NCBI GenBank assembly: GCA_963801665.1
Contig: CAWDFL010000003.1
Span: 1,757,748-1,821,747 of the forward strand
Direction of reading: 5' to 3'
DNA length: 64,000 bases
Source of the DNA: an uncultured delta proteobacterium
Lineage (GTDB): Bacteria; Desulfobacterota; Binatia; Binatales; Binataceae
Part shown: positions 5,324 through 60,035 of the stretch, piece after piece
How the letters are laid out: every line of letters starts with the position of its first letter
Numbering within the stretch: position 1 is the stretch's first letter
Notes under the pieces: model-generated
The model's database searches: none
The model's input: the letters and a program-made list of their open reading frames with translations, nothing else
What the model was told of the DNA's origin: nothing
Translations under genes and position numbers: made by a program

Positions 5324-7378
5324 GTGAAGTCACCGAATCTCGGGCTGCGCAGCGACCAGTTCGAGTACGTTCAACTGATCCTGCTGGCGGTGGTCGTCGG
5401 AGTTTTCGGGGCGCTCGGAAATCTCGGCTTTCGCGAGCTGATCGTGTTCTTCACCTGGCTGTTCCGCGGCCTCGAATGGAATCTGCTCGGGATCAATCGC
5501 GGCGGGATGTTCCGTATCCTGACGCCGATCATCCTGCTCTCCGGCGGCGTGGTGATACTCGTGCTCGATCGCTTCTTCCCCGGCGACATACTCGGCTACG
5601 GATTCCCGAATTTCCTCGAGCAGGTCAATCTCGGCAGCGCGCGAATCAAGCGCCGATGGATCGTGCTCAAGGCGCTGGGCGCGGCCCTCTCGCTCGGCTC
5701 GGGCGCGTCGGTCGGACGCGAAGGCCCGATCGCGCAAATCGGCGGCGCGATTGGCTCGGCCGCCGCCCAATTGCGCGGCCTCAGCTCCGACCGTGCCAAG
5801 GTGCTGGTCGCCGCGGGCGCGGGCGCCGGAATCGCGACCACCTTCAACGCTCCGATCGGCGGCCTGATGTTCGCGCTCGAGATTGTCCTGCTGGGACAGA
5901 CCGAGACCGCGAATCTCGCGCTGCTCATCATCTCGACCTTCAGCGCGGTGGTGACTTCGCGCGCGATCCTCGGCAATGACGCGGTTTTTCATGTGCCGCA
6001 GTTCGAGCTGAAGAGCTACTGGGAGATGCTGACCTACGCGCTGATGGGCGCGGTGCTGGGCGGTCTCGGCGCGAGCTATATTCGAGTCTTCAATGCGACC
6101 GGCGCGTACTTTCGGCGCATGACTTTGCCGTCATGGGAGAAGCTTGGCATCGGACTCGCGCTGGTCGGCGTGATCGCGATCTTTCTGCCCGCCAACCTCT
6201 CCGACGGATATCCGATCATCAACCGCGCGATGGCCGGCGAGTACGGCCTCGCGATGCTGCTGGCGCTGTGCGCGGCGAAATACGTGGCGTCGAGCCTGTC
6301 GCTTGGCTCGGGCGCGCCCGGAGGAGTTTTCGGACCGATCTTTTTCATCGGTACGATGGCCGGTGGAGCGTTCCAGAGAATCTCGGCGCTGTTCATTCCG
6401 CATTTGACCGGGCCGCGCGGCTCGTACGCCCTGGTGGGTTTGGGCGCTTTCCTGGCTGGCACCACCCACGCGCCTTTGACGGCGCTGTTCCTGCTCTTCG
6501 AGATGACCGGAGATTTCACGGTCGCGCTGCCGGCGATGATCGCCGCTGTCACCGCGCTGGTCGTCGCGCGTGCGATCGAGTCCGAATCGATCGACACTTA
6601 CCGCCTCGCGCGCGAGGGCAAGACGCTCCAGATCTCGCAGGAGCGGCTCGCGCTCACGCAAATTCCGGTCGGCGCCGTGATGACCAAGGATGTAACCGTG
6701 GTTAGCGCGAATGCGCGCCTGACCGATGTCTTGCACATCGCCGGACAGACGTCGCAGTCCACTCTTCCGGTGGTCGGGTCGGACGGCGAGTTCGTAGGAT
6801 TGATCGTGACTCGCGACCTGCTGACGCTTTTGGGCGGCGGCGGCGAGCTCGGTCCGCTGGTCAACGCGTTCGATATCGCTCAGGTAAATTGTCCACATCT
6901 CACCGCCGATCAGAATCTGGATTTCGCGAGCCAGTTGATGGAACAGGAGCGGCTCGACGAAATTCCCGTCGTTGAGAGACGCAATGGCGGCCGCTTCCTC
7001 GGCCTGGTGACGCGCCAGCATATCGCGCAGGCGCTCAACCGGGTTTCGGTTTCGCTCTCGGCCTTGGCGACGCGCGATCAGAATATCTACTGGGCCACCG
7101 GCTATCGCGTCACGCGGCTCGAAGTGCCTGCCGCAGCCACGGGCACTACCGTCCGCGCTCTCGATACCCGCGCGCGCTTCGGGGTTACGTTGCTGGCGCT
7201 GCAGAGCGCCGATGATCCCGACGCGGGGTTCGTGCCGGTCGCTCCCGATCGCCGCCTCAAGACCGGCGATCTGATCGTTGCAGCGGGCCGTCCCGCCGAT
7301 ATCCGGCGCTTCGAACGCGAGCTCGAGCTGCGCGCCTCGGCGTCCGCTCAGCCCGCGCCCGCAGCCGGAAAGACATAG
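5324..7378 (+). CDS. ClC-family chloride channel/transporter with tandem CBS domains and C-terminal TrkA-C (RCK_C) domain
   Basis: ClC selectivity motifs GREGP and GAPGGVFGP; two CBS-like repeats; TrkA-C-like tail. Confidence 0.85.
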   Translation: MKSPNLGLRSDQFEYVQLILLAVVVGVFGALGNLGFRELIVFFTWLFRGLEWNLLGINRGGMFRILTPIILLSGGVVILVLDRFFPGDILGYGFPNFLEQVNLGSARIKRRWIVLKALGAALSLGSGASVGREGPIAQIGGAIGSAAAQLRGLSSDRAKVLVAAGAGAGIATTFNAPIGGLMFALEIVLLGQTETANLALLIISTFSAVVTSRAILGNDAVFHVPQFELKSYWEMLTYALMGAVLGGLGASYIRVFNATGAYFRRMTLPSWEKLGIGLALVGVIAIFLPANLSDGYPIINRAMAGEYGLAMLLALCAAKYVASSLSLGSGAPGGVFGPIFFIGTMAGGAFQRISALFIPHLTGPRGSYALVGLGAFLAGTTHAPLTALFLLFEMTGDFTVALPAMIAAVTALVVARAIESESIDTYRLAREGKTLQISQERLALTQIPVGAVMTKDVTVVSANARLTDVLHIAGQTSQSTLPVVGSDGEFVGLIVTRDLLTLLGGGGELGPLVNAFDIAQVNCPHLTADQNLDFASQLMEQERLDEIPVVERRNGGRFLGLVTRQHIAQALNRVSVSLSALATRDQNIYWATGYRVTRLEVPAAATGTTVRALDTRARFGVTLLALQSADDPDAGFVPVAPDRRLKTGDLIVAAGRPADIRRFERELELRASASAQPAPAAGKT

Positions 7379-8010
7379 GGCCGGGCGCGTCCGGCGCGAA
7401 TTTCCGCGCAGAGCTCCGCTACGCTCTTAACCTCGCGTTCGAGTTCGGTCGCACAGGTGAGGAACCATTTTGCGGTCGAGAAGTGCGCATCGCTGCCGCC
7501 GACCGCCGTCAGTCCGAGCTTGAGCGCGGTGTCTTGCGCACGCTCGTTCTCGACATTCGAGTTCTGGCCGTTCAGCACTTCGATAGCGCCTATCGCCGCA
7601 CCATGGCGCGCGACCAGAGCGTCCAGCCGCGCGCCGAATCCCGACTCGCGGAACGGATGCGCCGGAATCGCGACGCCGCCTTCGTTATGAATCACCTCGA
7701 TCAGATGCTCACTGCGCAGCATGCGCGAGGTCAGATCGAATCGGCGCATCACCTCGTGATTGACGCCGTAGAGCAGCAGATGGCCGAGATCGGTGTCGGC
7801 CTCGATTCCCTTGAACACCGCGATTCCGCAATGCTCCGAGAGTTCGGCGTACTCGCGATCGATCTCGGGGTCGGTCGGGAACAGACGATGCTCGGTGAAA
7901 CAGATCGCGCCAAGCCCCGCGCTGCTCGCGTGCGCGAATTCGAGATATTGCTCCGCACCAACCCGCGAGTCCGCGGAGAGTTTCGTATGCACATGAAGAT
8001 CAACGATCAT
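7348..8010 (-). CDS. PHP-domain metal-dependent phosphoesterase
   Basis: N-terminal MIVDLHVHTKLS (PHP HxH motif), later His/Asp ligands; 3-prime end overlaps the ClC gene convergently by about 30 nt. Confidence 0.75.
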   Translation of the reverse strand: MIVDLHVHTKLSADSRVGAEQYLEFAHASSAGLGAICFTEHRLFPTDPEIDREYAELSEHCGIAVFKGIEADTDLGHLLLYGVNHEVMRRFDLTSRMLRSEHLIEVIHNEGGVAIPAHPFRESGFGARLDALVARHGAAIGAIEVLNGQNSNVENERAQDTALKLGLTAVGGSDAHFSTAKWFLTCATELEREVKSVAELCAEIRAGRARPYVFPAAGAG

Positions 8011-8120
8011 GCTATCCCCGGATGCAGTTGCCTGATTTCTCCCCCATTGTCTGACATGGGGGAGGATTAAAGGAGGGGGTGCAGCGACTACGTTCCCGTA
8101 TCATAAGCAGACCGTTCGGT

Positions 8121-8225
8121 CGTCATTTCGAGCCCTGGGTGAGAAATCCCGGAGCGCCCATGCTCTACGCCAGCGCCACATGCAATGCCCCTCCGCCGGG
8201 ATTTCTCCCTGCGGTCGAAATGACG
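8121..8225. repeat. REP-like element of a second family (about 32-bp inverted arms, 43-nt loop)
   Basis: cgtcatttcgagccctgggtgagaaatcccgg ... ccgggatttctccctgcggtcgaaatgacg; related arms recur at 35545..35675. Confidence 0.5.
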
Positions 8226-8278
8226 ATCGAGGTTTCAGTGCCATCCGCATCCCACCGCTCAATTGAAAACTCGCGCGC

Positions 8279-8572
8279 TCACGGCATGTTGAAAGCGTCG
8301 CGTGTCTGCAAGTGATCGACCACAGAAACTATTCCGGTGACGCGCAATACCGTCCATCGGATATTCGCGCGGTCCCATTCGGTAGGCACCGTTCCCCACA
8401 GAATCAGCGTGTCTTCCTCGAGCTTGAACTGCACGCCCTTATAGCCCTCCGCGTCGAGCTCGCGCCTGAGCAATTGCAATTGCTCGGGCGTCGCGCCGCC
8501 GTCGAGATCCGGCATCGGGATCGGCATCGGACTCACGTCCGGCGCCAGGCGGCTCCGCGGGCGGCACCGCAA
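8279..8572 (-). CDS. BON-domain ORF overlapping the kinase 3-prime end; a separate small gene or a frameshifted C-terminal extension of the kinase
   Basis: LRRELDAEGYKGVQFKLEEDTLILWGTVPTEWDRANIRWTVLRVTGIVSVVDHLQ resembles a BON domain; the frame is +1 relative to the kinase tail; internal ATGs at 8527 and 8515. Confidence 0.4.
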   Translation of the reverse strand: MRCRPRSRLAPDVSPMPIPMPDLDGGATPEQLQLLRRELDAEGYKGVQFKLEEDTLILWGTVPTEWDRANIRWTVLRVTGIVSVVDHLQTRDAFNMP

Positions 8573-9788
8573 GATGCGCGATCACGCTGGTCAGAAGAAA
8601 CGCGCCACCGAACAGCGCCGCGAGCGCAAGCAGATAAAATCGCGATCCGCGGTTGCGCCGCCTGCCGCGCCGATACTCTCCCGGCATCGGAGCTGGACCG
8701 GGAAAATCGCCAAGGTCGATCGTCCGCGCCTGTGCGGACTCGCGCTCGGCTGTGGGATCTTGATTCAACGGCGCGGCGCAGAACGAGCAGTAGCGCGAGT
8801 CCCCGGGAATCTGCCGGTCGCATCGCGGACACTCAATCGTCGCGAGGTCGGAAAGCACAGTCGGCGCCGAAGGCGACGCTGGCGTGCCCGAGCGTCCAAG
8901 CGGCAGCCGCATCTGCGGGCGCGATTGATTCGTGGCCGGCGCTGGAGCCGGCTGCGGCGCGGTAGCCGCGCGAGGCTCAATCGGCGCTCCGGATTTGATC
9001 GCGATGAGCCGCGTCTTGAATTCGCCGACATCCTGCGGGCGCAAGGCGACGTCGTAATTGAGCGTCTGATCAACCAGGTCGGCCAGCGCGGGATTAACTC
9101 CCGGCGCAGCGCTGCGCAACGGCGGAAAGCTGAACGGAGGCTCCGCGGCAGGATCGCGCCCGGAGATCGCATGATGCATCGTCGCCGCGAGCGCGTAGAG
9201 GTCGGAGCGGAACTCGACTCGCCCGCGATACTGTTCCGGCGGCGCGTAGCCCTGCGTCCCGATCATCGTCGCGTTCTGCATCGGCAGGAAGTGCCGCGCG
9301 ATTCCGAAGTCGATCAGCTTGACCTGTCCATTCGCCGTCAGCATCACGTTCGACGGCTTCAGATCACGGTAGATCACCGGCGGCGAGAGACTGTGCAGGT
9401 AGGCCAGCGTGTCGCAGATCTGAAGCGCGATATCGATCACCTCGCTCTCGGGCAGCTTGCCATCCGCGTCGCGCAACCGGTCCTCAAGGGTCTGGCCCTC
9501 GATATATTCCATCACCAGGTAGTGGCGATTCTGTTCGCTGAAGCGATCGAACACGCGCGGGATATGCTCATTGCTGAGCGTCGCGAGCATGTCGGCCTCG
9601 CGCTGGAACGCGGCGACGGCATCCTGCTGCTTTTCGGGGCTGGTGAAGGTATCGACCATCTCGGCCAGAGCGCACGGGCGTGAGGCGAGGCGCAAATCCT
9701 CCGCCAGGTAGACCATCTTCATTCCGCCGCCGCCGAGCGGACGGATCGCGCGGTAGCGTCCGCCAACGATGGTGTTAGCCGCGATCAT
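8439..9788 (-). CDS. Hanks-type Ser/Thr protein kinase with zinc-ribbon and C-terminal transmembrane segment
   Basis: Kinase motifs GGGGMKMV, VIYRDLKPSNVML, DFGIA, GTQGYAPPE; zinc ribbon CPRCDRQIPGDSRYCSFCAAP; TM FYLLALAALFGGAFLLTSVIAHL; ATG at 9788 is 1 nt after the upstream gene stop. Confidence 0.85.
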   Translation of the reverse strand: MIAANTIVGGRYRAIRPLGGGGMKMVYLAEDLRLASRPCALAEMVDTFTSPEKQQDAVAAFQREADMLATLSNEHIPRVFDRFSEQNRHYLVMEYIEGQTLEDRLRDADGKLPESEVIDIALQICDTLAYLHSLSPPVIYRDLKPSNVMLTANGQVKLIDFGIARHFLPMQNATMIGTQGYAPPEQYRGRVEFRSDLYALAATMHHAISGRDPAAEPPFSFPPLRSAAPGVNPALADLVDQTLNYDVALRPQDVGEFKTRLIAIKSGAPIEPRAATAPQPAPAPATNQSRPQMRLPLGRSGTPASPSAPTVLSDLATIECPRCDRQIPGDSRYCSFCAAPLNQDPTAERESAQARTIDLGDFPGPAPMPGEYRRGRRRNRGSRFYLLALAALFGGAFLLTSVIAHLAVPPAEPPGAGRESDADPDAGSRRRRDARAIAIAQARARRGGL

Positions 9789-9789
9789 C

Positions 9790-10284
9790 TCAGTAGCGCC
9801 ATGTGTCCGAAGGCACCGCAGTGCCGTGGATGCCGCGTCCGCGCCGCCGCGGGCGCGGGCCTGCGATTCGCTCATCGCGCAGCGAGCCCTGCAGGGCAGC
9901 ATTCAACGCGCAAATAAAGTGGAGGATCGGGCCGAGCGGTCCCAGCGCATACGCCAGCATCACGGCGCAGAACCAGACCACGCCGCGCATCACGCGTCCT
10001 TTGTAAATCTGCCCGAGCCCCGGAATCACGCTCAGGACGAAGGCGACGATCGGGTTGAAGCCCGGCTCGCCAGCGAAGGTCTGCGTTCCCGCGACAGGCG
10101 CGCCGCAATCCTTGCAAAACCTCGCCTTGGCAACGACGATCGGCTGGCCGCATCGCGAGCAGAAACGTGGCTGGTCGAATTGCGAATCAGGCACGGAAGG
10201 TAAACGGCGCCTGCCCGAGCCGGAACGAATCGCCGTCGGTGAGAGGCGCCTGCGTGATTCGCCGGTCTGCGACAAAAGTTCCAT
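9790..10284 (-). CDS. Double-zinc-ribbon small membrane protein (start uncertain; GTG at 10194 overlaps the FHA gene stop in a GTGccTGA arrangement)
   Basis: FCSRCGQPIVVAKARFCKDCGAP followed by two TM helices with a PGLGQIYKG motif; stop abuts the kinase start. Confidence 0.55.
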   Translation of the reverse strand: MELLSQTGESRRRLSPTAIRSGSGRRRLPSVPDSQFDQPRFCSRCGQPIVVAKARFCKDCGAPVAGTQTFAGEPGFNPIVAFVLSVIPGLGQIYKGRVMRGVVWFCAVMLAYALGPLGPILHFICALNAALQGSLRDERIAGPRPRRRGRGIHGTAVPSDTWRY

Positions 10285-11464
10285 TCTGGCTGTTTAGATC
10301 TCTAAGTTCGAATCCGCCGCCGGAGCTCACGATACTCGCGTGATGGCGTGAGACCGACGAATGATTCACCACGATGTCGTTGTCCAGCGCGCGGCCAAGG
10401 CTGGTCGCTCCGCTGGCGCGCACGGAATGGCGCTGGCCGGTAGAATCCTCGAGCGCAGGGCCGTTCATCTGCGGACCCGGCGCGGCGACGCGCGACTCGA
10501 TGTGAACCGCCGCCGCGGTTTGCGCTGGAGACACGGAGGCGGCCGAGCCTTGCCGCAGGTGAAACATCAGCTCGTACCCACCGACGCGGATCTTATCGCC
10601 GTCGTGCAGATCCGTGCTCTCGACCCGCTGTCCGTTGACGAACGTCCCGTCCTGGATCGCAAGCCCCTTGAGGACGAAATCCTGGCCGTGCCGTTCAATC
10701 ACAGCGTGGCGCTGTTGCACCGCCGGATCGCCGAACAGCCCGATCGGATTTTCTTCGGCGCGGCCGATGGTGGCGCGCGAGCCCTCGACCCTGAACTGAC
10801 GTCCGCGCAGCCGTCCCTGCTCCACGGTCAGCCACGCGACCTTGGTCAGCTCCTGCACCAGTCCAATAAACAAGCCAATGAAAAATCCGATGAGGCTAAG
10901 CCCGATGAGCCTCGACCACAGTCCTCCGCCGGTGATCTCGTTTATCGGATCGAACAATATCCCGCCGGCGAATCCGCCGATGAATCCGCCGATCGCGCCC
11001 TTGGCGATATTCGGCATCGAGAGCGACGCGAGGCCGACGCCCGCGCCGAGAATCGTGGCCATGATCACCCAGCTCAGCACGCGCCCGAGGAACAGGAAGA
11101 AGCTCGACCCCGGATGCCCGAGGCCCCATCCGCCGAAACTCAAGAGCGCGCTGAAAATATAATTCGAAAAATAATCGGCGGGCAGCGCGAGCAACAGGCA
11201 GACCACGAATCCGCGGATGAGGTTGTTGCGCGTCGTGGGATTCCATTCGATCTCCTGGCTGCCGACCGCAAGGATGAATCCGCCGATCACTCCCGAAAGG
11301 ATCGCCATCGCGACGTAAGACATCGCCGCGTCGAAGCTCGAGATCTGTTCGGTCAGGCTATGCCCGTGGCTCGCGAGCTCGACCGGAAGCCATCCGAGCG
11401 CACCGCCCAAGAGGCCCGCGAGCGCCTTGTTGAAGAGGTCGCGACGATTTATGGAGCTGTTCAT
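10187..11464 (-). CDS. Polytopic membrane protein with two C-terminal FHA domains
   Basis: About 6 predicted TM helices in the N-terminal 220 aa; two FHA-like modules (GRAEENPIGL...VNGQRV and GRALDNDIVV...VSRHHASI...NGTFV). Confidence 0.8.
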   Translation of the reverse strand: MNSSINRRDLFNKALAGLLGGALGWLPVELASHGHSLTEQISSFDAAMSYVAMAILSGVIGGFILAVGSQEIEWNPTTRNNLIRGFVVCLLLALPADYFSNYIFSALLSFGGWGLGHPGSSFFLFLGRVLSWVIMATILGAGVGLASLSMPNIAKGAIGGFIGGFAGGILFDPINEITGGGLWSRLIGLSLIGFFIGLFIGLVQELTKVAWLTVEQGRLRGRQFRVEGSRATIGRAEENPIGLFGDPAVQQRHAVIERHGQDFVLKGLAIQDGTFVNGQRVESTDLHDGDKIRVGGYELMFHLRQGSAASVSPAQTAAAVHIESRVAAPGPQMNGPALEDSTGQRHSVRASGATSLGRALDNDIVVNHSSVSRHHASIVSSGGGFELRDLNSQNGTFVADRRITQAPLTDGDSFRLGQAPFTFRA

Positions 11465-11674
11465 TCCAAGCCGATCCTTGCGTTGGCAACTCCCGCAATT
11501 GTCATAAAACCAGCAGGTCCAACATATGCTCTATCGGCAATTATAATAACCCGCCGGACCGACGCGTAAAATCCGTGCCTGCTGCCCGTGCAGCCTTCGC
11601 CCTGCGCCAGTTGCAGGCAAGCGCCCGCGCGCGGCATCATCACGACGGACGCATCGCACGTTATCGGAGTATCA

Positions 11675-12916
11675 ATGGCAGAGAAGACGCTTGTCCCGGA
11701 AGCATTTGGACCTTTGCAGGGTGTGAAAATCGTTTCGACCGGTACGCTGATCGCGCAACCGTTCGCGGCTGAGCTCGCGGCCGAGATGGGCGCCGAAGTG
11801 ATTCAGATCGAGCGCCCGGGCGTCGGCGATACTGGATGGCGCAATATCGGAATCAGGCTCGCGACGCGCGATGGCACTCCGCCGGTCGCGAGCTCCTGGG
11901 TGCAGGAGCGTCGCAACGTTTTCTGCATCACGCTCGATCTCTCCAAGCCGCGCGGGCGTGAAGTCTTTCTCAAACTCGCGGCGCGCGCCGATATCTGGAT
12001 GGAAAGTTCGAAGCCCGGCACCTATCCGAAGTGGAACCTCGATGACGCGGCCGTTTGGAAGCTCAATCCGAAACTGGTCATCACACACGTGAGCGGCTTC
12101 GGCCAGACGGGCGAGCCTGATTACGTCACGCGCGCATCCTACGACATCGTGGGACAGGCGGTGGCCGGCATGATGTACCAGACCGGATATCCCGATCCCA
12201 CGCCGCCGACGCGCGCGGCGCCGTGGACCGGCGACTATATCACCGCGCTGTTCACGCTATGGTCGTCGCTGGCGGGGCTTACCTATGCGCGCTCAACCGG
12301 CAAGGGCCAGGCGATCGACGTCGCGCAGTACGAGGCGATACACAAGACGATGGGCGGCACGATGCTCGAGTATTTTCAGCAAGGCGTGGTGCGCGAGCGC
12401 TCGGGTAATCGCGCGCAGGGCTTTCAGCCGCTCGATAGCTTCCAGGCGAGCGACGGATGGGTCGTGCTGGGCGCACTCGGCGAAGTTTACGATCGCCTCG
12501 TTAGGGTGATCGGCCTGGATCCGGCGGATCCAAAATGGCAAAGCGCGCGCGTGAATCTCGAATCGATCGAAGGGATCGAATTCGACGCGATCCTGCGCGG
12601 ATGGGTCAGCGAGCGCACGGTCGCTCAGGTGGTTCACGCGATGGCGGAAGGCAAGGTTCCGTGCTCGCAGATCATGTCGAGCAAGGACGCCGCCGAAGAC
12701 CCGCAGTATCGCGCGCGCGAGATGCACATCGAGTGGGAAGATCCGCACGTCGGCAAGGTCAAGGGCATCGGCGTCGCGCCAAAGTTCTCGCTAACTCCCG
12801 GAAAAATTGTGCGCGGCTCCGTCGGCATCAGTGCCGACAACGCGCGCATTTATGGCGACCTTCTCGGGATGGCGCCGAGCGAGATAGAAGCACTGAAGCG
12901 CGACAAGGTGATCTGA
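11675..12916 (+). CDS. CoA transferase family III (CaiB/BaiF-like)
   Basis: MAEKTL..GVKIVSTGTLIAQPFAAELAAEMGAEVIQIERPGVGD typical family-III N-terminus; full length about 410 aa. Confidence 0.85.
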   Translation: MAEKTLVPEAFGPLQGVKIVSTGTLIAQPFAAELAAEMGAEVIQIERPGVGDTGWRNIGIRLATRDGTPPVASSWVQERRNVFCITLDLSKPRGREVFLKLAARADIWMESSKPGTYPKWNLDDAAVWKLNPKLVITHVSGFGQTGEPDYVTRASYDIVGQAVAGMMYQTGYPDPTPPTRAAPWTGDYITALFTLWSSLAGLTYARSTGKGQAIDVAQYEAIHKTMGGTMLEYFQQGVVRERSGNRAQGFQPLDSFQASDGWVVLGALGEVYDRLVRVIGLDPADPKWQSARVNLESIEGIEFDAILRGWVSERTVAQVVHAMAEGKVPCSQIMSSKDAAEDPQYRAREMHIEWEDPHVGKVKGIGVAPKFSLTPGKIVRGSVGISADNARIYGDLLGMAPSEIEALKRDKVI

Positions 12917-12936
12917 CCTCGCCACAAAAAGTCGCA

Positions 12937-13115
12937 GAGCAGCACCCTCACCCACGCGTCACGGCGATTGCTGAAAGGAGCAATCGCCGCGCCGCGTCGC
13001 CCTCTCCCGGAGGGAGAGGGTATTTCCCGATCGCGACGCGAGACATAGTGTCCGTACTGATTCCCTCTCCCTCCGGGAGAGGGTGGCGCGAAGCGGCGGG
13101 TGAGGGTGCGGCTCT
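12937..13115. repeat. Nested palindromic intergenic structure between convergent genes (probable bidirectional terminator / REP cluster)
   Basis: outer arms cagagcagcaccctcaccc / gggtgagggtgcggctctg; inner hairpins ggcgattgct-gaaagg-agcaatcgcc and two copies of ccctctccc-gga-gggagaggg. Confidence 0.55.
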
Positions 13116-13149
13116 GCTGCTGCTCGCGAACGCGTACCGCAGCGCCGCG

Positions 13150-13977
13150 CTAGTGCGCCACCTTGCCCATGAAGGTCTGGACCGCGCGTCGGAACTCGCC
13201 TTCGTCGGTGTAGCGGCCGAGATCGAGGATGAAGTAGCTCGCGCCGGCCTCGCGTTCGGCGTCGAGCTTTGCTCGTGCGGCGGCGATATCGTCGAGTTTC
13301 ATGCCCCGGCGCACGATTATCTCCGGCTCGGGGCGTCCGGCGGCGCGCATCTTCGATCGCAAATCTTCAACCAACGGTTTAAGTTCCGCCGCGCGCTGCA
13401 TCGGATGCCATCCGTCGCCGAATTCGAGCACCCGCTTGATCGCATTCGCGCCTCCGCCGCCGATCCAGATCGGCGGACGGGCGGGGCGTGGCTCGAAGAC
13501 GAACGCCGGAAACTTCACCAGCTCTCCGCGAAACGGCGCGGGCTCAGAGCCGTCGAACAGATGCCGCAGCACGCGCAGCGTCTCGGTCGTGAGCACGCCG
13601 CGCTTTTTCATGTCGACACCCAGCGCCTCGAACTCGGGCTTCATCCATCCGACGCCGACGCCGAGGATCATCCGTCCGCCCGACAGCTCCTGGATCGTCG
13701 CGATCTGCTTGGCGGTCAGCACCGCCGGCCGGTACGGAAGCACCAGCACCGACACTCCGAGCCGGATGCGCTCAGTCGATCCGGCAAGAAACGCGAGCGT
13801 CGCCAGCACGTCAAGATAGCGTCCTCCAGAGCCTTCGGTTTGATCGGGCGGGATGCATAGATGGTCCGAGACGAAGAGCCCATCAAAGCCCGCTTGTTCG
13901 GCGGCTTTGGCGCAAGCCAAAATCGTCGCACGCGTAGATTGCGGTCCCATGTTGCGAATCGCGATTCCGTATTTCAT
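13150..13977 (-). CDS. LLM-class (luciferase-like) flavin/F420-dependent oxidoreductase
   Basis: MKYGIAIRN N-terminus typical of the LLM fold, TIM-barrel family conservation. Confidence 0.8.
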   Translation of the reverse strand: MKYGIAIRNMGPQSTRATILACAKAAEQAGFDGLFVSDHLCIPPDQTEGSGGRYLDVLATLAFLAGSTERIRLGVSVLVLPYRPAVLTAKQIATIQELSGGRMILGVGVGWMKPEFEALGVDMKKRGVLTTETLRVLRHLFDGSEPAPFRGELVKFPAFVFEPRPARPPIWIGGGGANAIKRVLEFGDGWHPMQRAAELKPLVEDLRSKMRAAGRPEPEIIVRRGMKLDDIAAARAKLDAEREAGASYFILDLGRYTDEGEFRRAVQTFMGKVAH

Positions 13978-14680
13978 TTGCCACCTCGCCGCGAACAGAT
14001 TCGCGTCCATCGCAAGACTGGCAAGCATCGCGAGGGCGCGTCAAACTGCATCACGCGGGAGGACGATCGTTTGGGGAGACCATCGACGAAGGAGCGCAGA
14101 CCCTACAACAGCGAGGCGATCGCGGAACGTCGCGGTGCGGGTGTTTCTGGAGCGCGGCTACGACGGCGCGTCGCTCGACGACGTGGCGCGTGCGGCGGGA
14201 ATCACCAAGGCCAGCATTTACTACCACGTCCGCAGCAAAGAGGATTTGCTCGCGCGCGGCGTTGGGCGCGCTTTCGACGCGCTGGGCGCCGCGATGCGCG
14301 AGCCGGGCGCGAAGCAGGGCAGCGCGGAGGCGCGCCTTCGGTATATCGTGCGGCGCACGATCGAGATCACGGTTGTGATGCGGCCCGAGGTCGCGCTGCT
14401 CTTGCGTGTGCGCGGCAACACTCGCGTCGAGAAGGCTATCGTCGAGCGCCGCCGCGCGTTCGATCACCTGGTGGCGCGCCATTTCGCGCGCGCGCAGCGC
14501 GCGGGCGAGTTCCGCCGCGATATCGATCCGCGGCTCGCTACGCGGCTTCTGTTCGGGATGCTCAATTCGATCACGGAATGGTACCGGCCAGGGGGCGAGC
14601 TGGGCGCGGAGGATATCGTGCAGGCGGTGTTCCGGCTCGCGTTCGAGGGTCTCAAAAGCAAGCGCTCGCGCGCCACTTGA
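13949..14680 (+). CDS. TetR/AcrR family transcriptional regulator (start uncertain)
   Basis: HTH VRVFLERGYDGASLDDVARAAGITKASIYYHVRSKEDLL; the only in-frame ATG (13949) overlaps the divergent LLM start by 29 bp, so the true start may be a later non-ATG codon. Confidence 0.7.
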   Translation: MLRIAIPYFICHLAANRFASIARLASIARARQTASRGRTIVWGDHRRRSADPTTARRSRNVAVRVFLERGYDGASLDDVARAAGITKASIYYHVRSKEDLLARGVGRAFDALGAAMREPGAKQGSAEARLRYIVRRTIEITVVMRPEVALLLRVRGNTRVEKAIVERRRAFDHLVARHFARAQRAGEFRRDIDPRLATRLLFGMLNSITEWYRPGGELGAEDIVQAVFRLAFEGLKSKRSRAT

Positions 14681-35332: not shown

Positions 35333-35860
35333 TTCCTGTCCGTCATCCTGAACGAAGTGAAGGATCTCCGCGAAGCGATTAGTGCGCAAAGCCCGGATTG
35401 GTTGCACTAATCGCTTCGCGGAGATCCTTCGCCTGCGGCTCAGACCTTCACGAGTCCTTCGGACCCGCCACGCGGGACGAAAGTTAGCGTATAGCAACAG
35501 GCTGCGCGAAAGACGGGCGGCTCGCGAGCCGCCCCTACGAAGACTTGTGCGGCTGTCATTCCCGCGCGTGGCTGCCGCGCGAGGAATCCCGGGCGAAGGG
35601 TTGCTGCATGTGGTGTTGGCGTCGAGCATGGCCGCTTCGGGATTTCTCGCGCAGCGCTCGAAATGACACCCGGGGCGTGGCCGAGATACGATTCGCATCG
35701 CTCCACCGAGTTTCATGGCAGGATGACGGACAGGCTCGGCCGTGTTGATCAATGATGCGCGAAAGGCGAGCGGCTCCCACGAAGAAGATCCGATTCGGAT
35801 CGAGCGAATGAATTCTCGATTTTGTAGGACGCGTCGCGACGCGTGGGTCAGGATGCTGTT
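35333..35860. repeat. Dense cluster of nested inverted repeats (MITE/REP-like) with terminal inverted repeats cctgtccgtcatcctg ... caggatgacggacagg
   Basis: TIRs at 35337 and 35722; internal palindromes gaaggatctccgcgaagcgattagtgc/gcactaatcgcttcgcggagatccttc, gggcggctcgcgagccgccc, gtcattcccgcg.../...cgaaatgac; modules shared with 31865..31990 and 8121..8225. Confidence 0.55.
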
Positions 35861-49195: not shown

Positions 49196-50338
49196 ATGGA
49201 CCTGGAACTCACCTCGCCGCAGCGCGCCGCGCGCGACACCGCACGCCGCTTCGCACGCGAAAAGCTCGAACCGATCGGGGTCGAATGCGACCGGACGCAT
49301 CAGTTCCCGAAAGCCGCGATCGACGAGCTCGGACGGCTGGGAATCCTCGGCACCTTTATCCCGGAGAATTTCGGCGGCGCCGGTCTTGACCAGGTTGCCT
49401 ACGCGCTCGTGGTCGAGGAGCTGGCCGTCGCCTGCGCTTCCACCGCCGTCATCGTCTCGGCGCATTGCTCGCTCGCGTCGTGGCCGATTTTAGGATTGGG
49501 CAGCGACAAGATGAAGGCGCAGTTCCTGCCGAAGATGGCCTCGGGCGAATGGCTCGGATGCTTCGCGCTCACGGAGCCGCAGGCCGGCTCGGACGCTGCC
49601 GGGCAGAAGACTCGCGCGATTCTCAACGGCGACAGCTACGTGATCAACGGCACCAAAAATTTCATCACCAATTCGCCGCAGGCCGGTGTCGCGATCGTGT
49701 TCGCCATGACCGCGCCGGAGAAGGGACATCACGGAATCAGCGCGTTCGCGGTCGAGACGAGCTCGCCCGGATGGGCGGTGACGCGGGTCGAAGACAAAAT
49801 GGGAATTCATGGCGCGCACTCGGCGCAGCTCAGCTTCAGCGACATGCGCGTGCCGCGCGAGAACCTGCTGATGGGCGAGGGCGAAGGCTTCAAGGTCGCG
49901 ATGAAAACCCTGGACGGCGGACGTATCGGAATCGCGGCGCAGGCGGTCGGAATCGGACGCGCGTCGCTCGAAGCGTCGCTCAAATATGCGCAGGAGCGCC
50001 AGACCTTCGGCCGTCCGATCGCGCAGCATCAGGCGATCCAGTTCAAGCTCTCCGATATGGCGCTGGCGGTGGACGCCGCCCGTTTGTTGACGCTGCGCGC
50101 GGCGGCGCTGAAGGACGCGGGTAAGCCGTGCACCAAGGAATCGGCGATGGCCAAGCTGTTCGCGGCCGAAACCGCAATGGAAGCCGCCACCCAGGCGATT
50201 CAGATTCACGGCGGCTACGGCTACACCCGCGAGTTCAAGGTCGAGCGCTATTTTCGTGATGCTAAGATCACGGAGATCTACGAGGGCACGTCGGAGATCC
50301 AGCGCCTGGTTATCGCGGGCCAGGTTCTCGGACACTGA
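49196..50338 (+). CDS. Acyl-CoA dehydrogenase (short/branched-chain type)
   Basis: ACAD fold with catalytic Glu near the C-terminus ([12 protein letters not shown]), FAD-binding regions. Confidence 0.85.
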
Positions 50339-52415: not shown

Positions 52416-53573
52416 GTGAATTTCGATCTAACCGAAGAGCAGCAGCGCATCCGCGACACGCTCGCCACGTTCGCCGAGCGCGAAATCAAGCCCTTCGCCT
52501 CGAAGTGGGACAAGGACGAAACCTTTCCACGCGAAGTGATCGAGAAACTCGGCGCGCTCGGATTCCTCGGCGTCGCGTTTCCCGAGAAATGGGGCGGCGG
52601 CGCGGCCGGCACGCTCTCTCAGGTGCTGGTGGTCGAGGGGCTCTCGCGTTACGACGCGTCGATCGGCCTGACCTGCGCCGCGCACATGTCGCTCTCGACC
52701 GGGCATATCGCGGCCTTCGCGAGCGATGAGCATCGCGACAAGTACGTCCCCGAGATGCTGGCGGCGAAGAAGCTTGGCGCGTGGTGCCTGACCGAGCCGA
52801 GCTCGGGCTCTGACGCGGCCGCGATGAAAACCCGCGCGGTTCGCACCGGCGATAATTTTCAGATCAACGGCTCGAAGATGTTCATCACCAACGGCACCGT
52901 CGGCGACGTGTACGTCGTGATGGCGGTGACCGATACGGCCAAAGGGCGCGACGGCGTGTCGGCGTTTATAGTCGATCGCGGCACGGCTGGATTATCGAAC
53001 GGAAAGAAAATCGAGAAGCTCGGCCTGCACGCCTCCGACACGGCCGAAGTAATTTTCGAGAACGTCACGATTCCTGCGCGCAATCTGATCGGAGCGCTCG
53101 GCGCGGGCTATCGGCAGACGCTCAAGATCCTCGAGGGCGGTCGTATCGGGATCGCCGGCTTCGCCGCGGGAATTGCGCGCGGCGCTTTCGAGGAAGCGCG
53201 CGCCTACGCGCTCGATCGGCGCCAATTCAACAGCCGGATCGCGGATTTCCAGGCGATCCAATGGATGTTCGCCGACATGGCGACGCGGCTCGAAGCCTCG
53301 TGGGTGCTGATTTGCCGCGCCGCCGCGCTGCGCGATGCCGGCAAGCCGTACGCGCGCGAAGCCGCGATGGCGAAGCTGTTCGCCTCGGAGACCGCGATGT
53401 GGTCAACGACCAAGTCGGTGCAGATTCACGGCGGCTACGGCTACGTGACCGATTTTCCGGTCGAGCGCTACATGCGCGACGCGAAGCTCGCCGAGATCGG
53501 CGAGGGCACCAGCGAAGTGCTGCGCATGATTATCGCCAAGTCGCTGCTGCGCGAGGGCTATCTGCCCGCGTAG
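52416..53573 (+). CDS. Acyl-CoA dehydrogenase
   Basis: ACAD fold, catalytic Glu in IGEGTSEVLRMIIA; GTG start. Confidence 0.85.
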   Translation: MNFDLTEEQQRIRDTLATFAEREIKPFASKWDKDETFPREVIEKLGALGFLGVAFPEKWGGGAAGTLSQVLVVEGLSRYDASIGLTCAAHMSLSTGHIAAFASDEHRDKYVPEMLAAKKLGAWCLTEPSSGSDAAAMKTRAVRTGDNFQINGSKMFITNGTVGDVYVVMAVTDTAKGRDGVSAFIVDRGTAGLSNGKKIEKLGLHASDTAEVIFENVTIPARNLIGALGAGYRQTLKILEGGRIGIAGFAAGIARGAFEEARAYALDRRQFNSRIADFQAIQWMFADMATRLEASWVLICRAAALRDAGKPYAREAAMAKLFASETAMWSTTKSVQIHGGYGYVTDFPVERYMRDAKLAEIGEGTSEVLRMIIAKSLLREGYLPA

Positions 53574-58022: not shown

Positions 58023-60035
58023 TCAGAGGTGGATTTCCGCTTCGGCCTCGGCCAAGTAGGCACGATACTCCGGCGATGACTGGAGCAATTCCGTATGACT
58101 GCCTTCGCAGGCCACAGTTCCGCCGTTTATGAAAAGCACGCGGTCGCACGCCGCGAGCGTGTTCGCACGATGCGCGACGATTACGACAATTCGCGTCCGT
58201 GCGAGGCTGCGCAGCGTTGCCATCAGTCCGGTTTCGCTGGCCGGATCCAGCGGCGCCGTCGGCTCGTCGAGAATCAACACGTCCGGACTGCGCAGGATCG
58301 CGCGCGCAATCGCGATGCGCTGCTTCTGCCCGACCGAAAGCCGCGCGCCGCGCCGCCCGAGCATCGTCGCGTAACCGTTCGGCATCTTCTCAATAAACTC
58401 CGCCGCACCCGCCAGCGCCGCGACGGTCCGCACTTCCTCGTCGCCGGCGTGGCGATGGCCGTAACGGATATTGTCGCCGATTGTTTCGGAGAAGAGCGCT
58501 TCCTGCTGAAAGACAAAACCGATTCGGCTGCGGATCGTGTCGGGCGCGAAACCGCGGGCATCCTTGCCATCAAGCAAAATCTCTCCTGAGGTGGTCTCGA
58601 TGAATCTCGGAATCGACAGGATGAGCGTGGTCTTGCCCGCGCCGCTTGGTCCCGCGATCGCGATCATCTTGCCCGAACGCAACGTGAACGAGACGTTCTC
58701 CAGAACGGATTCCGCGGCTGTATATCCGACCGCCACGTCGCGCAGCGCGATTTCATTTATCGATAACGGCGCGGCGCTCCCGTCGAGCGGAGCCGGCGCC
58801 TCGGCGAATCCGTCGAGGACGCTATGAACCCGGCGCAATCCCGCGACGGCCGGCTGGACCGCCGCCCACGTGCCGCCGACGGTGGCGGCAGGCTTGGAAA
58901 GCATCATGCCGTAGCTGAGCAGCAGGACCACGTCGCCGAGCGTCATAGCGTGGTGGATGACTTGCATCATCAGATAGTAAATCGCACCAATAGTGAGCGC
59001 GGCCGTCGCGGGCACCAGCACGAGAGTGAGCGCCAACCCGATCGCCAGCATCTTGAGTGCGGCGCGATACGAGCCCCAGCTCGCTGCATCGACGGCGACC
59101 GCCTCGCGATTCTCGGTGCCGAATGCCTTGATGAGGCTGACTTGCGCAAGCCGCTCCTCGAACGCTGCCATCACGTCGCTGCCGCGCTCGCGCATGTCCT
59201 GGCTCTGGTCGCGCAGCAGCCGGCCGAAGATCGCGGCGCCGATCGCGATTACTGGAAGCGACAGCGCCGCGAGAATCGGTATAACCCGCTCCGCGGGAAA
59301 CTGCATCCACAGCACGATCAGCGCCATGACAAACATCACGATCGACATCAGCGGCCCGAGCACCGCAGTGTAGAGAACCGCGCCAATCGACGCGCTGTCG
59401 TGCATTACGCGGAACACGGCGTCGCCGAGTTTCTGATCCGCGAACAGGCCGAGGCGCGAGCGCAGGAAGCGCTCATAGATCGCGGTGCGCACGCCCTGGT
59501 TGATGCGCTGAGTCAGATCGAGCGTGATCAGAACTTCGTAGTAACCGAACAGGCCGTTCCACAAGCTCCATCCGTCGTTCGCGGCGTTCTGCGAGAAGCC
59601 GGCCTGGTCAAGACCGCCGCTATCGACCCCGGTTACGAGCTCGTCAGAACGGTCGCCAACCATCCCGACCGAAATCGCCGCGAAGATCAGGAACGCGCAG
59701 AGCACGAACAGCAGCGACATCCGGTTGGTCCCCGCCAGCGGCAACAGGAGCATCGCCGGCAATCCGGTCAGCGGACGGCCGTCGATCACGTTGTCGATGA
59801 TGATCTTGAGCGGCCACGGCGTGAGCAGAAAAAATGTCAGCGAAAAAAATGCGAGGATGCATTTCAGATAAACCAGGCGCCGATGCTCGGCGATAAAAGG
59901 CCAGCTCTTGATGAGCAGGCGCGCGGCGCCGATCGGGCCGATCGATTTGCGCTCGGCCGAGTAGAGATGGCTTTTGCGCGAATCGGCGCGCGCGCCGTTT
60001 TCCGGCGCCGGGGTGCGCGCGAGAGTGCTAGCCAT
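58023..60035 (-). CDS. ABC exporter, fused permease-ATPase (MsbA/MdlB type), subunit B of a heterodimer
   Basis: Six-TM exporter domain plus NBD with Walker A GPSGAGKTT, signature LSVGQKQR, Walker B ILILDEPT. Confidence 0.85.
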   Translation of the reverse strand: MASTLARTPAPENGARADSRKSHLYSAERKSIGPIGAARLLIKSWPFIAEHRRLVYLKCILAFFSLTFFLLTPWPLKIIIDNVIDGRPLTGLPAMLLLPLAGTNRMSLLFVLCAFLIFAAISVGMVGDRSDELVTGVDSGGLDQAGFSQNAANDGWSLWNGLFGYYEVLITLDLTQRINQGVRTAIYERFLRSRLGLFADQKLGDAVFRVMHDSASIGAVLYTAVLGPLMSIVMFVMALIVLWMQFPAERVIPILAALSLPVIAIGAAIFGRLLRDQSQDMRERGSDVMAAFEERLAQVSLIKAFGTENREAVAVDAASWGSYRAALKMLAIGLALTLVLVPATAALTIGAIYYLMMQVIHHAMTLGDVVLLLSYGMMLSKPAATVGGTWAAVQPAVAGLRRVHSVLDGFAEAPAPLDGSAAPLSINEIALRDVAVGYTAAESVLENVSFTLRSGKMIAIAGPSGAGKTTLILSIPRFIETTSGEILLDGKDARGFAPDTIRSRIGFVFQQEALFSETIGDNIRYGHRHAGDEEVRTVAALAGAAEFIEKMPNGYATMLGRRGARLSVGQKQRIAIARAILRSPDVLILDEPTAPLDPASETGLMATLRSLARTRIVVIVAHRANTLAACDRVLFINGGTVACEGSHTELLQSSPEYRAYLAEAEAEIHL

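Follow-up and report, generated by a model that had tools for sequence, protein, structure and literature searches.

FHA proteins are found together with PknB-like membrane kinases in the FhaA/FhaB(FipA)-PstP-RodA-PbpA-PknA-PknB cluster of actinobacteria and in the Fha(TagH)-PpkA-PppA clusters of type VI secretion systems (T6SS), and clusters combining vWA, FHA, PP2C and Ser/Thr kinase genes represent what we take to be TerY-P-like triads. In Mycobacterium tuberculosis, two reports place the kinase PknF and Rv1747, a protein with two FHA domains, in one operon (PMC3138270, PMC8339232). Here we describe a locus on the minus strand of a 64,000-nucleotide (nt) stretch of an uncultured delta proteobacterium of the Binataceae (contig CAWDFL010000003.1 of assembly GCA_963801665.1; this whole stretch is hereafter the window). 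Judged from its sequence, the locus probably encodes a Ser/Thr phospho-signalling system set in the membrane, in the form of an operon characteristic of Candidatus Binataceae, an uncultured soil family. Its core is a three-gene, translationally coupled operon of these bacteria, whose products are a membrane protein carrying two FHA domains, the small zinc-ribbon membrane protein ZnTM and a Hanks kinase that ends in a BON domain.

A compact operon conserved in Candidatus Binataceae

Along the minus strand from position 11464 to 7348, the locus contains, in order, an open reading frame (ORF) of 425 amino acids (aa), one of 134 aa, a kinase ORF, an overlapping 97-aa ORF, a spacer and a 220-aa ORF. 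The initial annotation, made from the letters of the window, had read these as a five-gene Ser/Thr phospho-signalling module without a PP2C phosphatase. The absence of PP2C holds, as neither the 64-kb window nor any of 84 related loci gave a match to our own hidden Markov model (HMM) of limited sensitivity, built from the three PP2C genes of loci L085-L087. The gene count does not, since the locus consists of three genes plus a PHP gene, the 97-aa BON ORF being the C terminus of the kinase. Likewise, the tight packing described for four genes is found at the 8-nt overlap of the FHA and ZnTM genes and the 1-nt gap between the ZnTM and kinase genes, but the BON ORF drops out as the fourth member. 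The three genes are as follows.

10187..11464, minus strand: gene 1, 425-aa membrane protein with two predicted cytoplasmic FHA domains (Pfam FHA; full-length orthologues at 50-97% identity)
9790..10194, minus strand: gene 2, 134-aa zinc-ribbon membrane protein (GTG start at 10194; overlaps the stop of gene 1 by 8 nt)
8279..9788, minus strand: gene 3 as reconstructed, receptor Hanks kinase of ~502 aa with one base removed (homologues P0001 and P0002)

Conservation was evaluated in 84 genome loci, comprising the best 80 of at least 566 stretches that encode relatives of the FHA protein (one genome per GTDB species, tblastn) and four from other look-ups. Kinase homologues were counted among the best 120 listed protein clusters, and a further set of 120 metagenome contig stretches was selected by the glycine-loop motif of the kinase. 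Identity to the FHA query is 50-96% among the best 80 loci, and those with names all belong to Binataceae, Binatus or metagenome-assembled genomes (MAGs) labelled as unclassified "delta proteobacterium"; the window itself is placed in Candidatus Binataceae, class Binatia, by the source names of its homologues. The FHA, ZnTM and kinase genes lie side by side, in one constant order, in essentially all of the 84 genome loci where the contig allows, with an FHA/ZnTM overlap of 8 nt and a ZnTM-kinase gap of 1-60 nt in nearly all of them. Both partners also precede the kinase in 52 of the 55 metagenome loci having at least 2 kb upstream, which bears out the expectation that the gene order would recur in related genomes.

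The exceptions delimit what is conserved most deeply. A divergent lineage (L090) keeps the FHA protein and the kinase-BON gene without ZnTM and without PHP. In L091, an FHA membrane protein of 37% identity adjoins two kinases of the same lysine type (see below) that have no BON domain, together with a zinc-ribbon cyclase-AAA-TPR protein, and in L085-L087, on Armatimonadota-like contigs, relatives of ~30% identity are encoded in FHA/vWA/FHA-FHA/PP2C/kinase-TPR clusters. From these exceptions, the conserved core is a membrane-FHA protein with a Hanks kinase, and by its gene neighbourhoods the membrane-FHA family is a recurrent kinase partner. Literature searches returned no description of this operon.

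The BON domain is the C terminus of the kinase

As read, the kinase ORF spans 8439-9788 (449 aa, ATG at 9788), and the 97-aa BON ORF at 8279-8572 overlaps its tail in a different frame. Two features are needed to relate them.

8282..8545, minus strand: BON domain, 88 aa including a proline-rich lead-in (Pfam, AlphaFold2 and Foldseek)
8545..8547, minus strand: one-base insertion site that splits BON from the kinase (DNA alignments to L005, L007, L001, L008, L088 and L089)

In the homologues P0001 (98% identity, 502 aa) and P0002 (92% identity, 503 aa), the sequence "...VIAHLAVPPAEPPAPDVSPMPIPMPDL..." runs directly into that of the BON ORF, which matches the last 88 residues of both proteins. 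Nearly all of the 120 best listed kinase homologues are ~490-525 aa long, the 449-aa ORF of the window aligns over ~92% of its length, and an HMM built on the kinase family runs through both window ORFs in succession. At the DNA level, the window reads CCTGGCG where L005 has CC-TGCG and L007, L001 and L008 have CC-GGCG; the closest DNA relatives (L088 and L089, 93% nt identity) are also without the extra base, located at window position 8547. The supposed BON gene is thus the C-terminal domain of the kinase, split in this window by one base, and is to be annotated within it. The earlier suspicion that kinase and BON share one frame was correct, as was the attachment of a BON domain to a kinase, while the listing of the BON ORF as a gene of its own is contradicted by the single-protein homologues and by the aligned DNA of relatives.

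We lean towards an assembly artefact rather than a real mutation as the origin of the extra base, since the site looks like two variants merged in a consensus and the codons downstream are undamaged. A real frameshift, by which the kinase would have lost its BON sensor and been cut short to a 449-aa product ending in 40 aa of nonsense sequence, in a module that is decaying or being rewired, is the less probable of the two but a serious possibility. In its favour, this is the sole uncompensated in-gene indel over the 17 kb compared with L005 and L007, which means that the assembly is not generally error-prone, and the kinase domain and upstream genes are otherwise intact. However, the gene is in frame in the 120 protein clusters, in nearly all 84 genome loci and in L088 and L089; the BON codons match those of P0001 almost exactly; CCTGGCG resembles what a consensus caller would produce by merging CC-TGCG and CC-GGCG; and the occurrence of split kinases in 2 of the 120 metagenome stretches (L170 and L199) suggests assembly error. 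We retain the artefact as the favoured explanation. Programmed frameshifting was considered and rejected, as the site has no slippery sequence and the extra base is missing in all relatives.

In L170 and L199, kinase and BON lie in different ORFs with breaks at other places than in the window, reflecting independent frameshifts or assembly errors. L199 was also evaluated as a second case of the same frameshift and set aside as unrelated, given its ~70% identity to the window and the different position of its break. Fragmented genes of the same neighbourhood occur on a 4.58-Mb MAG chromosome (OY970324.1, loci L004/L047), where the region ~11500-14200 encodes a 58-aa PHP fragment and CLC fragments of 485 and 132 aa. 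These fragments point to frameshift errors or decay in that assembly, and suggest that single-base indels do occur in these MAGs.

The BON assignment is carried by structure and by the family more than by the single sequence. The Pfam BON model (PF04972) scores 20.5-20.9 bits against a gathering score of 27, and 26.0 bits for the L090 orthologue; 18 of 25 C-terminal domains of the family match BON at E<=0.01 (best E 1.2e-5), all under the gathering score. Searching the PDB by sequence with the BON ORF alone returned only noise, and the family profile found OsmY as its best match (8rjx, E 1.5e-3). The AlphaFold2 model (pLDDT 79) has the alpha-beta-beta-alpha-beta (H-E-E-H-E) topology, and Foldseek ranks OsmY, Kbp-derived sensors, BonA, CdsD, Kbp, YscD and DolP at the top, with query TM-scores of 0.53-0.63. 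Together these results uphold the assignment. The domain is predicted to be extracytoplasmic, as it follows a single transmembrane (TM) helix preceded by an Arg-rich stretch and is placed outside by the positive-inside rule and the helix count.

A PknB-like kinase with a relocated lysine

The reconstructed gene 3 encodes, in order, a kinase domain, a Pro-rich linker, a zinc ribbon, a TM helix and the BON domain, with the following features ahead of BON.

8979..9758, minus strand: kinase catalytic domain, PknB/StkP-like (Pkinase E 2.5e-35)
9717..9719, minus strand: Lys24 codon in the glycine loop GGGGMK (GxGxxK), PKA position 55 (invariant, 120/120)
9663..9665, minus strand: Ala42 codon at the beta-3 position (PKA K72, PknB K40; alignments to StkP, PknB and WNK1)
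8778..8831, minus strand: zinc ribbon CPRC-x10-CSFC, predicted on the cytoplasmic side of the TM helix (conserved at >=90% in the family alignment)
8571..8639, minus strand: single TM helix with an Arg-rich stretch before it (hydropathy scan and sequence)

The proposal of a Hanks kinase with its own ribbon and TM helix is supported in each part by the Pkinase match, the CxxC-x10-CxxC pattern and the hydropathy scan. PF00069 matches the kinase domain with 122.6 bits against a gathering score of 31.7, and its closest solved relatives are StkP, Staphylococcus aureus Stk1/PknB and M. tuberculosis PknB. The motifs YRDLKPSN (with the catalytic Asp and Asn), DFG, the alpha-C Glu and GTxxYxxPE are each kept in 119-120 of the 120 homologues. 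The lysine that Hanks kinases carry in beta-3 (VAIK) is absent, the corresponding motif being CALAEM in 119 of 120 homologues. Both the lysine in the glycine loop and the missing beta-3 lysine are invariant across the listed homologues (120/120), and the beta-3 residue is never Lys in the 120 metagenome stretches, in which the loop lysine is present by selection.

This pattern has a eukaryotic counterpart. The WNKs are the only functional family of eukaryotic protein kinases without K72, according to Kannan et al. (PMC1821047), a study that also gives the meaning of kinase positions 55 and 72. In BLASTP alignments, K24 pairs with WNK1 K233 and A42 with WNK1 C250, and the kinase is 35% identical to PknB and 30% to WNK1. 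By these alignments, the kinase has the WNK-type lysine arrangement, that is, a lysine at position 55 and another residue at 72. Beyond lacking the beta-3 Lys and having one at the third glycine of GxGxxG, it shares with WNK a similar LH-x-x-x-PP-(I/V)-I-(H/Y)-RDLK stretch, but has DFG (DFGIA) where WNK has DLG (DLGLA). No WNK is found among the best 60 solved relatives, of which the best are StkP, PknB, PknA, Aurora and PknG. The resemblance is most simply explained by convergence rather than by membership of the WNK family; overall, the kinase is closer to PknB. Literature searches found no bacterial WNK-like kinase described, which does not prove that none exists. WNK-type relocation within a PknB-like family would constitute a clean natural experiment on rebuilding a kinase active site.

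The replacement of the beta-3 Lys by Ala across the listed homologues could also indicate a catalytically dead pseudokinase that acts only as phospho-acceptor or scaffold. In mycobacteria, the pseudokinase domain of MviN recruits FhaA, which offers a comparison for such a role. We consider this unlikely for the present kinase: it retains the YRD Asp, the KPSN Asn, DFG, the alpha-C Glu and GTxxYxxPE at the frequencies given above, its invariant lysine occupies the exact position that rescues catalysis in WNK kinases (PMC1821047), and the window encodes no second kinase.

Two metagenome loci (L110 and L212) encode a 775-aa protein in which several TM helices and a C-terminal part resembling TPR are fused to the same K55/A72 kinase domain, with no FHA or ZnTM genes upstream. 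With these fusion proteins, the lysine-relocated kinase type occurs in at least three architectures.

The FHA and zinc-ribbon membrane proteins

The product of gene 1 divides into a membrane-embedded half and two FHA domains, as had been proposed.

10826..11464, minus strand: N-terminal six-helix, glycine-zipper-rich membrane domain, residues 1-213
10556..10801, minus strand: FHA domain 1 (FHA1), non-canonical (sequence and invariant alignment columns)
10193..10438, minus strand: FHA domain 2 (FHA2), canonical (Pfam best stretch at residues 354-417; invariant residues)

PF00498 matches the protein in two stretches with 121.8 bits against a gathering score of 20.7 (E 1.6e-35), confirming two FHA domains after the hydrophobic N-terminal half. 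By the positive-inside rule and the helix count, both are predicted to be cytoplasmic. The phospho-threonine contact residues are complete in one of the two, FHA2, whose signature (G357-R358, S372-R-H-H375 and S392-Q-N394-G-T) is invariant in the orthologue alignment. FHA1 is conserved, but Gln250 replaces the usual phosphate-binding Ser, and Asp replaces the Asn of S-x-N-G-T.

The six-helix domain, aligned in 8 rows, matches no Pfam family and no solved fold. Searching its profile against 1.84 billion representative proteins nevertheless recovered 974 clusters (50% identity) at E<=1e-3, including 262 at <=1e-10, and an FHA-type Pfam match was present in 97 of 100 sampled family members (FHA in 88, the overlapping Yop-YscD_cpl in 97). 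These numbers point to a widespread, unnamed family of proteins combining a glycine-zipper membrane domain with FHA, and thereby to a large class of kinase-controlled membrane proteins. Searching with a profile of 100 distant members recovered mainly Binataceae once more, which left only ~10 usable distant proteins.

ZnTM keeps its CxxC-x11-CxxC pattern and two hydrophobic segments across 80 orthologues, and the four Cys are conserved in both ribbon proteins, ZnTM and the kinase. Database matches to the ribbon (Zn_ribbon PF13240, DZR and 4Cys_prefix_kin) reach 18-24 bits against cut-offs of 24-29, among them the "4-Cys prefix" often fused to kinases (NF045510, 22.2 bits against 24), and the DUF6677 match of ZnTM is also under its curated cut-off. 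The claim of a zinc ribbon in two adjacent proteins has the conserved CxxC pairs in its favour, but its Pfam and NCBIfam matches all stay under their cut-offs.

The downstream PHP gene and the phosphatase question

Beyond the kinase, the same strand contains a spacer and a phosphoesterase gene.

8011..8278, minus strand: 268-nt kinase-PHP spacer with nested inverted repeats and a dispersed repeat copy (repeat, folding and gap comparisons)
7348..8010, minus strand: PHP plus PHP_C metal-dependent phosphoesterase, 220 aa (PF02811 and PF13263)

Both domains score over their gathering scores (PF02811 31.6 bits against 26.4, PF13263 40.6 against 21.3), and the metal-binding motifs, read from the sequence, are all intact. 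The initial annotation was right about the domains and the strand, but the gene lies outside 8279-11464, 268 nt from the kinase. It had also been likened to the CpsB/YwqE type of protein phosphatase, with which, as with Php1, the protein shares the PHP metal-binding motifs; no Pfam or NCBIfam match to the CpsB/YwqE subfamily is found at E<=0.01, and that likeness is abandoned. Among solved structures, a 5'-3' exoribonuclease comes closest (7ug9, E 5e-4), with 9etk also matched, and NCBIfam gives partial matches to CehA/McbA, RNase RNM and nucleoside bisphosphate phosphatase. The protein thus falls, by weak best matches, nearest to the TrpH/YciV (RNase AM) and nucleoside bisphosphate phosphatase group and to CehA/McbA.

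The PHP protein might serve as the cognate phosphatase that resets the kinase/FHA system in place of PP2C, a role that we regard as rather doubtful. Several points support the idea: its gene is the next one downstream of the kinase on the same strand, with a median gap of 10 nt and four overlaps (-4) in 69 genome loci; 37 of 45 informative metagenome loci have it; it remains beside the kinase in loci from which the neighbouring CLC gene has moved off; its metal-binding motifs are intact; and the limited HMM found no PP2C in the window or the 84 loci. The remaining evidence points the other way. The phosphatase role is unproven because the protein resembles RNase AM/TrpH-type enzymes and not CpsB/YwqE. 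Characterised PHP protein phosphatases are tyrosine-specific, are paired with bacterial tyrosine kinases (BY-kinases) and are inactive on phosphoserine peptides (PMC6759763), and literature searches returned no PHP enzyme described as acting with a Hanks kinase. Roughly 10-18% of the loci do not have the gene, which is absent from 7 of ~77 genome loci, where the kinase abuts CLC or unrelated genes, from 8 of 45 metagenome loci and also from the divergent L090, all of which keep the kinase/FHA pair; in L027 it has remained beside CLC, at a distance of 3.3 kb from the kinase. In divergent loci, PHP is more conserved than the signalling genes (62-81% versus 50-70% identity), which suits a housekeeping enzyme. 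Linkage alone cannot show a functional tie, because the whole neighbourhood (CoA-transferase, CLC and hydrolase genes) is syntenic. PHP is better regarded as a probable accessory gene that would usually be co-transcribed with the operon, possibly so here. If it does prove to be a phosphatase, it would represent a new class of Ser/Thr phosphatase partner where PP2C is expected.

The repeat-bearing 268-nt spacer also argues against a tight link in the window. Gaps of 213-268 nt occur only in the clade of the window, and most of the spacer is missing in the relatives L001 and L007. It contains inverted repeats at 8116-8142/8204-8230 and 8039-8064, forming a hairpin that is long but imperfect (8116-8230) and a 9-bp stem without mismatches (8039-8064), with a fold z of -3.3 versus shuffles, and its segment 8122-8207 recurs inverted at 35581-35667 (87 nt, 83% identity). 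Further intergenic repeat pairs of 47-51 nt are located at 31900-31946/35497-35543 and 681-731/768-816/2925-2974, and these dispersed intergenic repeats may be a family of REP (repetitive extragenic palindromic) or MITE-like (miniature inverted-repeat transposable element) elements. Neither the spacer nor the region 7000-12000 as a whole, scanned at E up to 1, contains an Rfam match.

A gene for a CLC chloride channel with two CBS domains and TrkA_C (5324-7378, plus strand) converges on PHP, and the 3' ends of the two genes overlap by 31 nt. It is syntenic with the kinase operon across Binataceae and directly abuts the kinase in three of the loci without PHP. In view of the WNK-like kinase, such linkage is suggestive, but it may be plain synteny.

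A possible signalling mechanism

OsmY, which is osmotically induced, and Kbp, which binds K+, are BON proteins, and the BON ectodomain could report the state of the envelope, for example its lipid, osmotic or ionic conditions. The kinase would then autophosphorylate on Thr, either in the invariant activation-loop motif NATMIGTQGY or in SAPT(V/M)LS, a conserved motif in the linker ahead of the zinc ribbon; PrkC signalling is known to require a juxtamembrane phosphosite (PMC12636448). The canonical FHA2 might dock on the phospho-threonine of the kinase, and docking would place the activity or assembly of the six-helix membrane domain under kinase control, for which PknF/Rv1747 sets a precedent. 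ZnTM would probably be a third membrane subunit of the complex. The most far-reaching proposal joins four parts: Binataceae receptor kinases would have independently reinvented the WNK lysine and coupled it to a BON sensor, a previously undescribed six-helix FHA output and a PHP off-switch in place of PP2C. We hold this combination as a whole to be very unlikely. In its boldest form, the system would sense ionic or osmotic state in the manner of WNKs, and the syntenic CLC channel gene two genes away would then make sense.

Several observations weigh against the locus being a working signalling operon. The kinase of this genome may be a pseudogene, its canonical catalytic lysine is absent so that it could be inactive, and FHA1 does not have two of the phosphate-contact residues of its signature. 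What BON senses and what the six-helix domain does are guesses. Conservation across the Binataceae loci extends to the flanking genes for CoA-transferase, CLC channel and hydrolase, so much of it is plain synteny within one family; with the whole region syntenic, unrelated metabolic genes included, conserved order is weaker evidence than it appears, and synteny is broken in only a few loci (L091, L092 and L085-L087). Finally, the operon is known from genes alone and the organism only from MAGs.

Flanking sequences

Upstream of gene 1 lies a single candidate promoter.

11543..11570, minus strand: sigma-70-like promoter match, TTTACG-16-TATTAT (9/12 matches), in the divergent spacer shared with the CoA-transferase gene

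This is the sole site found where ~1 is expected by chance, and hence weak evidence; in general, promoter and terminator scans yielded site numbers not above chance expectation. The divergent gene encodes a family III coenzyme A (CoA)-transferase (11588-12916, plus strand), whose longest ORF begins at GTG 11588. Orthologues align only from about residue 25-30, and the true start is probably an ATG near 11675 ("MAEKTLV..."), in which case this gene and the FHA gene would share ~210 nt of divergent promoter region. Elsewhere in the window, direct repeat pairs at 49568-50316 versus 52788-53536 and at 58233-58371 versus 60220-60358 (67-72% DNA identity, a few kb apart) are probably paralogous genes.

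Some matches could be taken to place the genes in an anti-phage defence system or a secretion apparatus. PADLOC kinase models (PD-T4-6 and MADS) match the kinase domain, Pfam Yop-YscD_cpl matches the FHA domains, and CdsD and YscD are among the fold matches of BON. However, the PADLOC and NCBIfam matches cover the generic kinase domain only and are far under the NCBIfam family cut-offs, the other three proteins have no meaningful PADLOC match, and Yop-YscD_cpl is an FHA-fold family that overlaps every FHA match. Flanking genes of defence or secretion type are present in none of the loci, where the neighbours are metabolic and form a stable syntenic block. We consider such an affiliation extremely improbable.

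Comparison with known systems

At the level of the sensor, the predicted extracytoplasmic domain shares the alpha-beta-beta-alpha-beta fold with OsmY, DolP, BonA and Kbp, its best structural matches. It differs from them as a single BON domain fused to the outer end of a receptor kinase and scoring under the Pfam cut-off.

At the level of gene clusters, the NCBIfam models for FhaB and TagH match the FHA domains only partially and far under their equivalog cut-offs, and unlike the FhaA/PknB and T6SS clusters, this locus has no PASTA repeats, no cell-wall or T6SS genes nearby and no PP2C recognised by our HMM of limited sensitivity. The mismatch with the FhaA/PknB/PstP and T6SS Fha/PpkA/PppA layouts, asserted in the initial annotation, is thus substantiated. 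The vWA/FHA/PP2C/kinase clusters come nearer in that they hold the distant (~30% identity) membrane-FHA-FHA relatives of L085-L087. The Binataceae operon, in contrast, is without vWA, PP2C and extra FHA proteins, and where their kinases have TPR repeats, its own has a zinc ribbon, TM helix and BON; the kinases of L085-L087 keep the beta-3 Lys, whereas the Binataceae kinase has K55/A72.

The likeness to M. tuberculosis PknF/Rv1747 lies in a membrane protein with two cytoplasmic FHA domains (predicted here) encoded beside a membrane Hanks kinase and in docking through phospho-threonine, likewise predicted here (PMC3138270, PMC8339232). Rv1747 is an ABC exporter with N-terminal FHA, while the protein described here has a six-helix glycine-rich domain, C-terminal FHA and no ATPase. 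The Binataceae operon further adds a zinc-ribbon membrane protein, and its kinase has a BON ectodomain and a relocated lysine. The operon is real and conserved, and although the general logic of pairing FHA proteins with kinases is already known, this variant of the theme is new.

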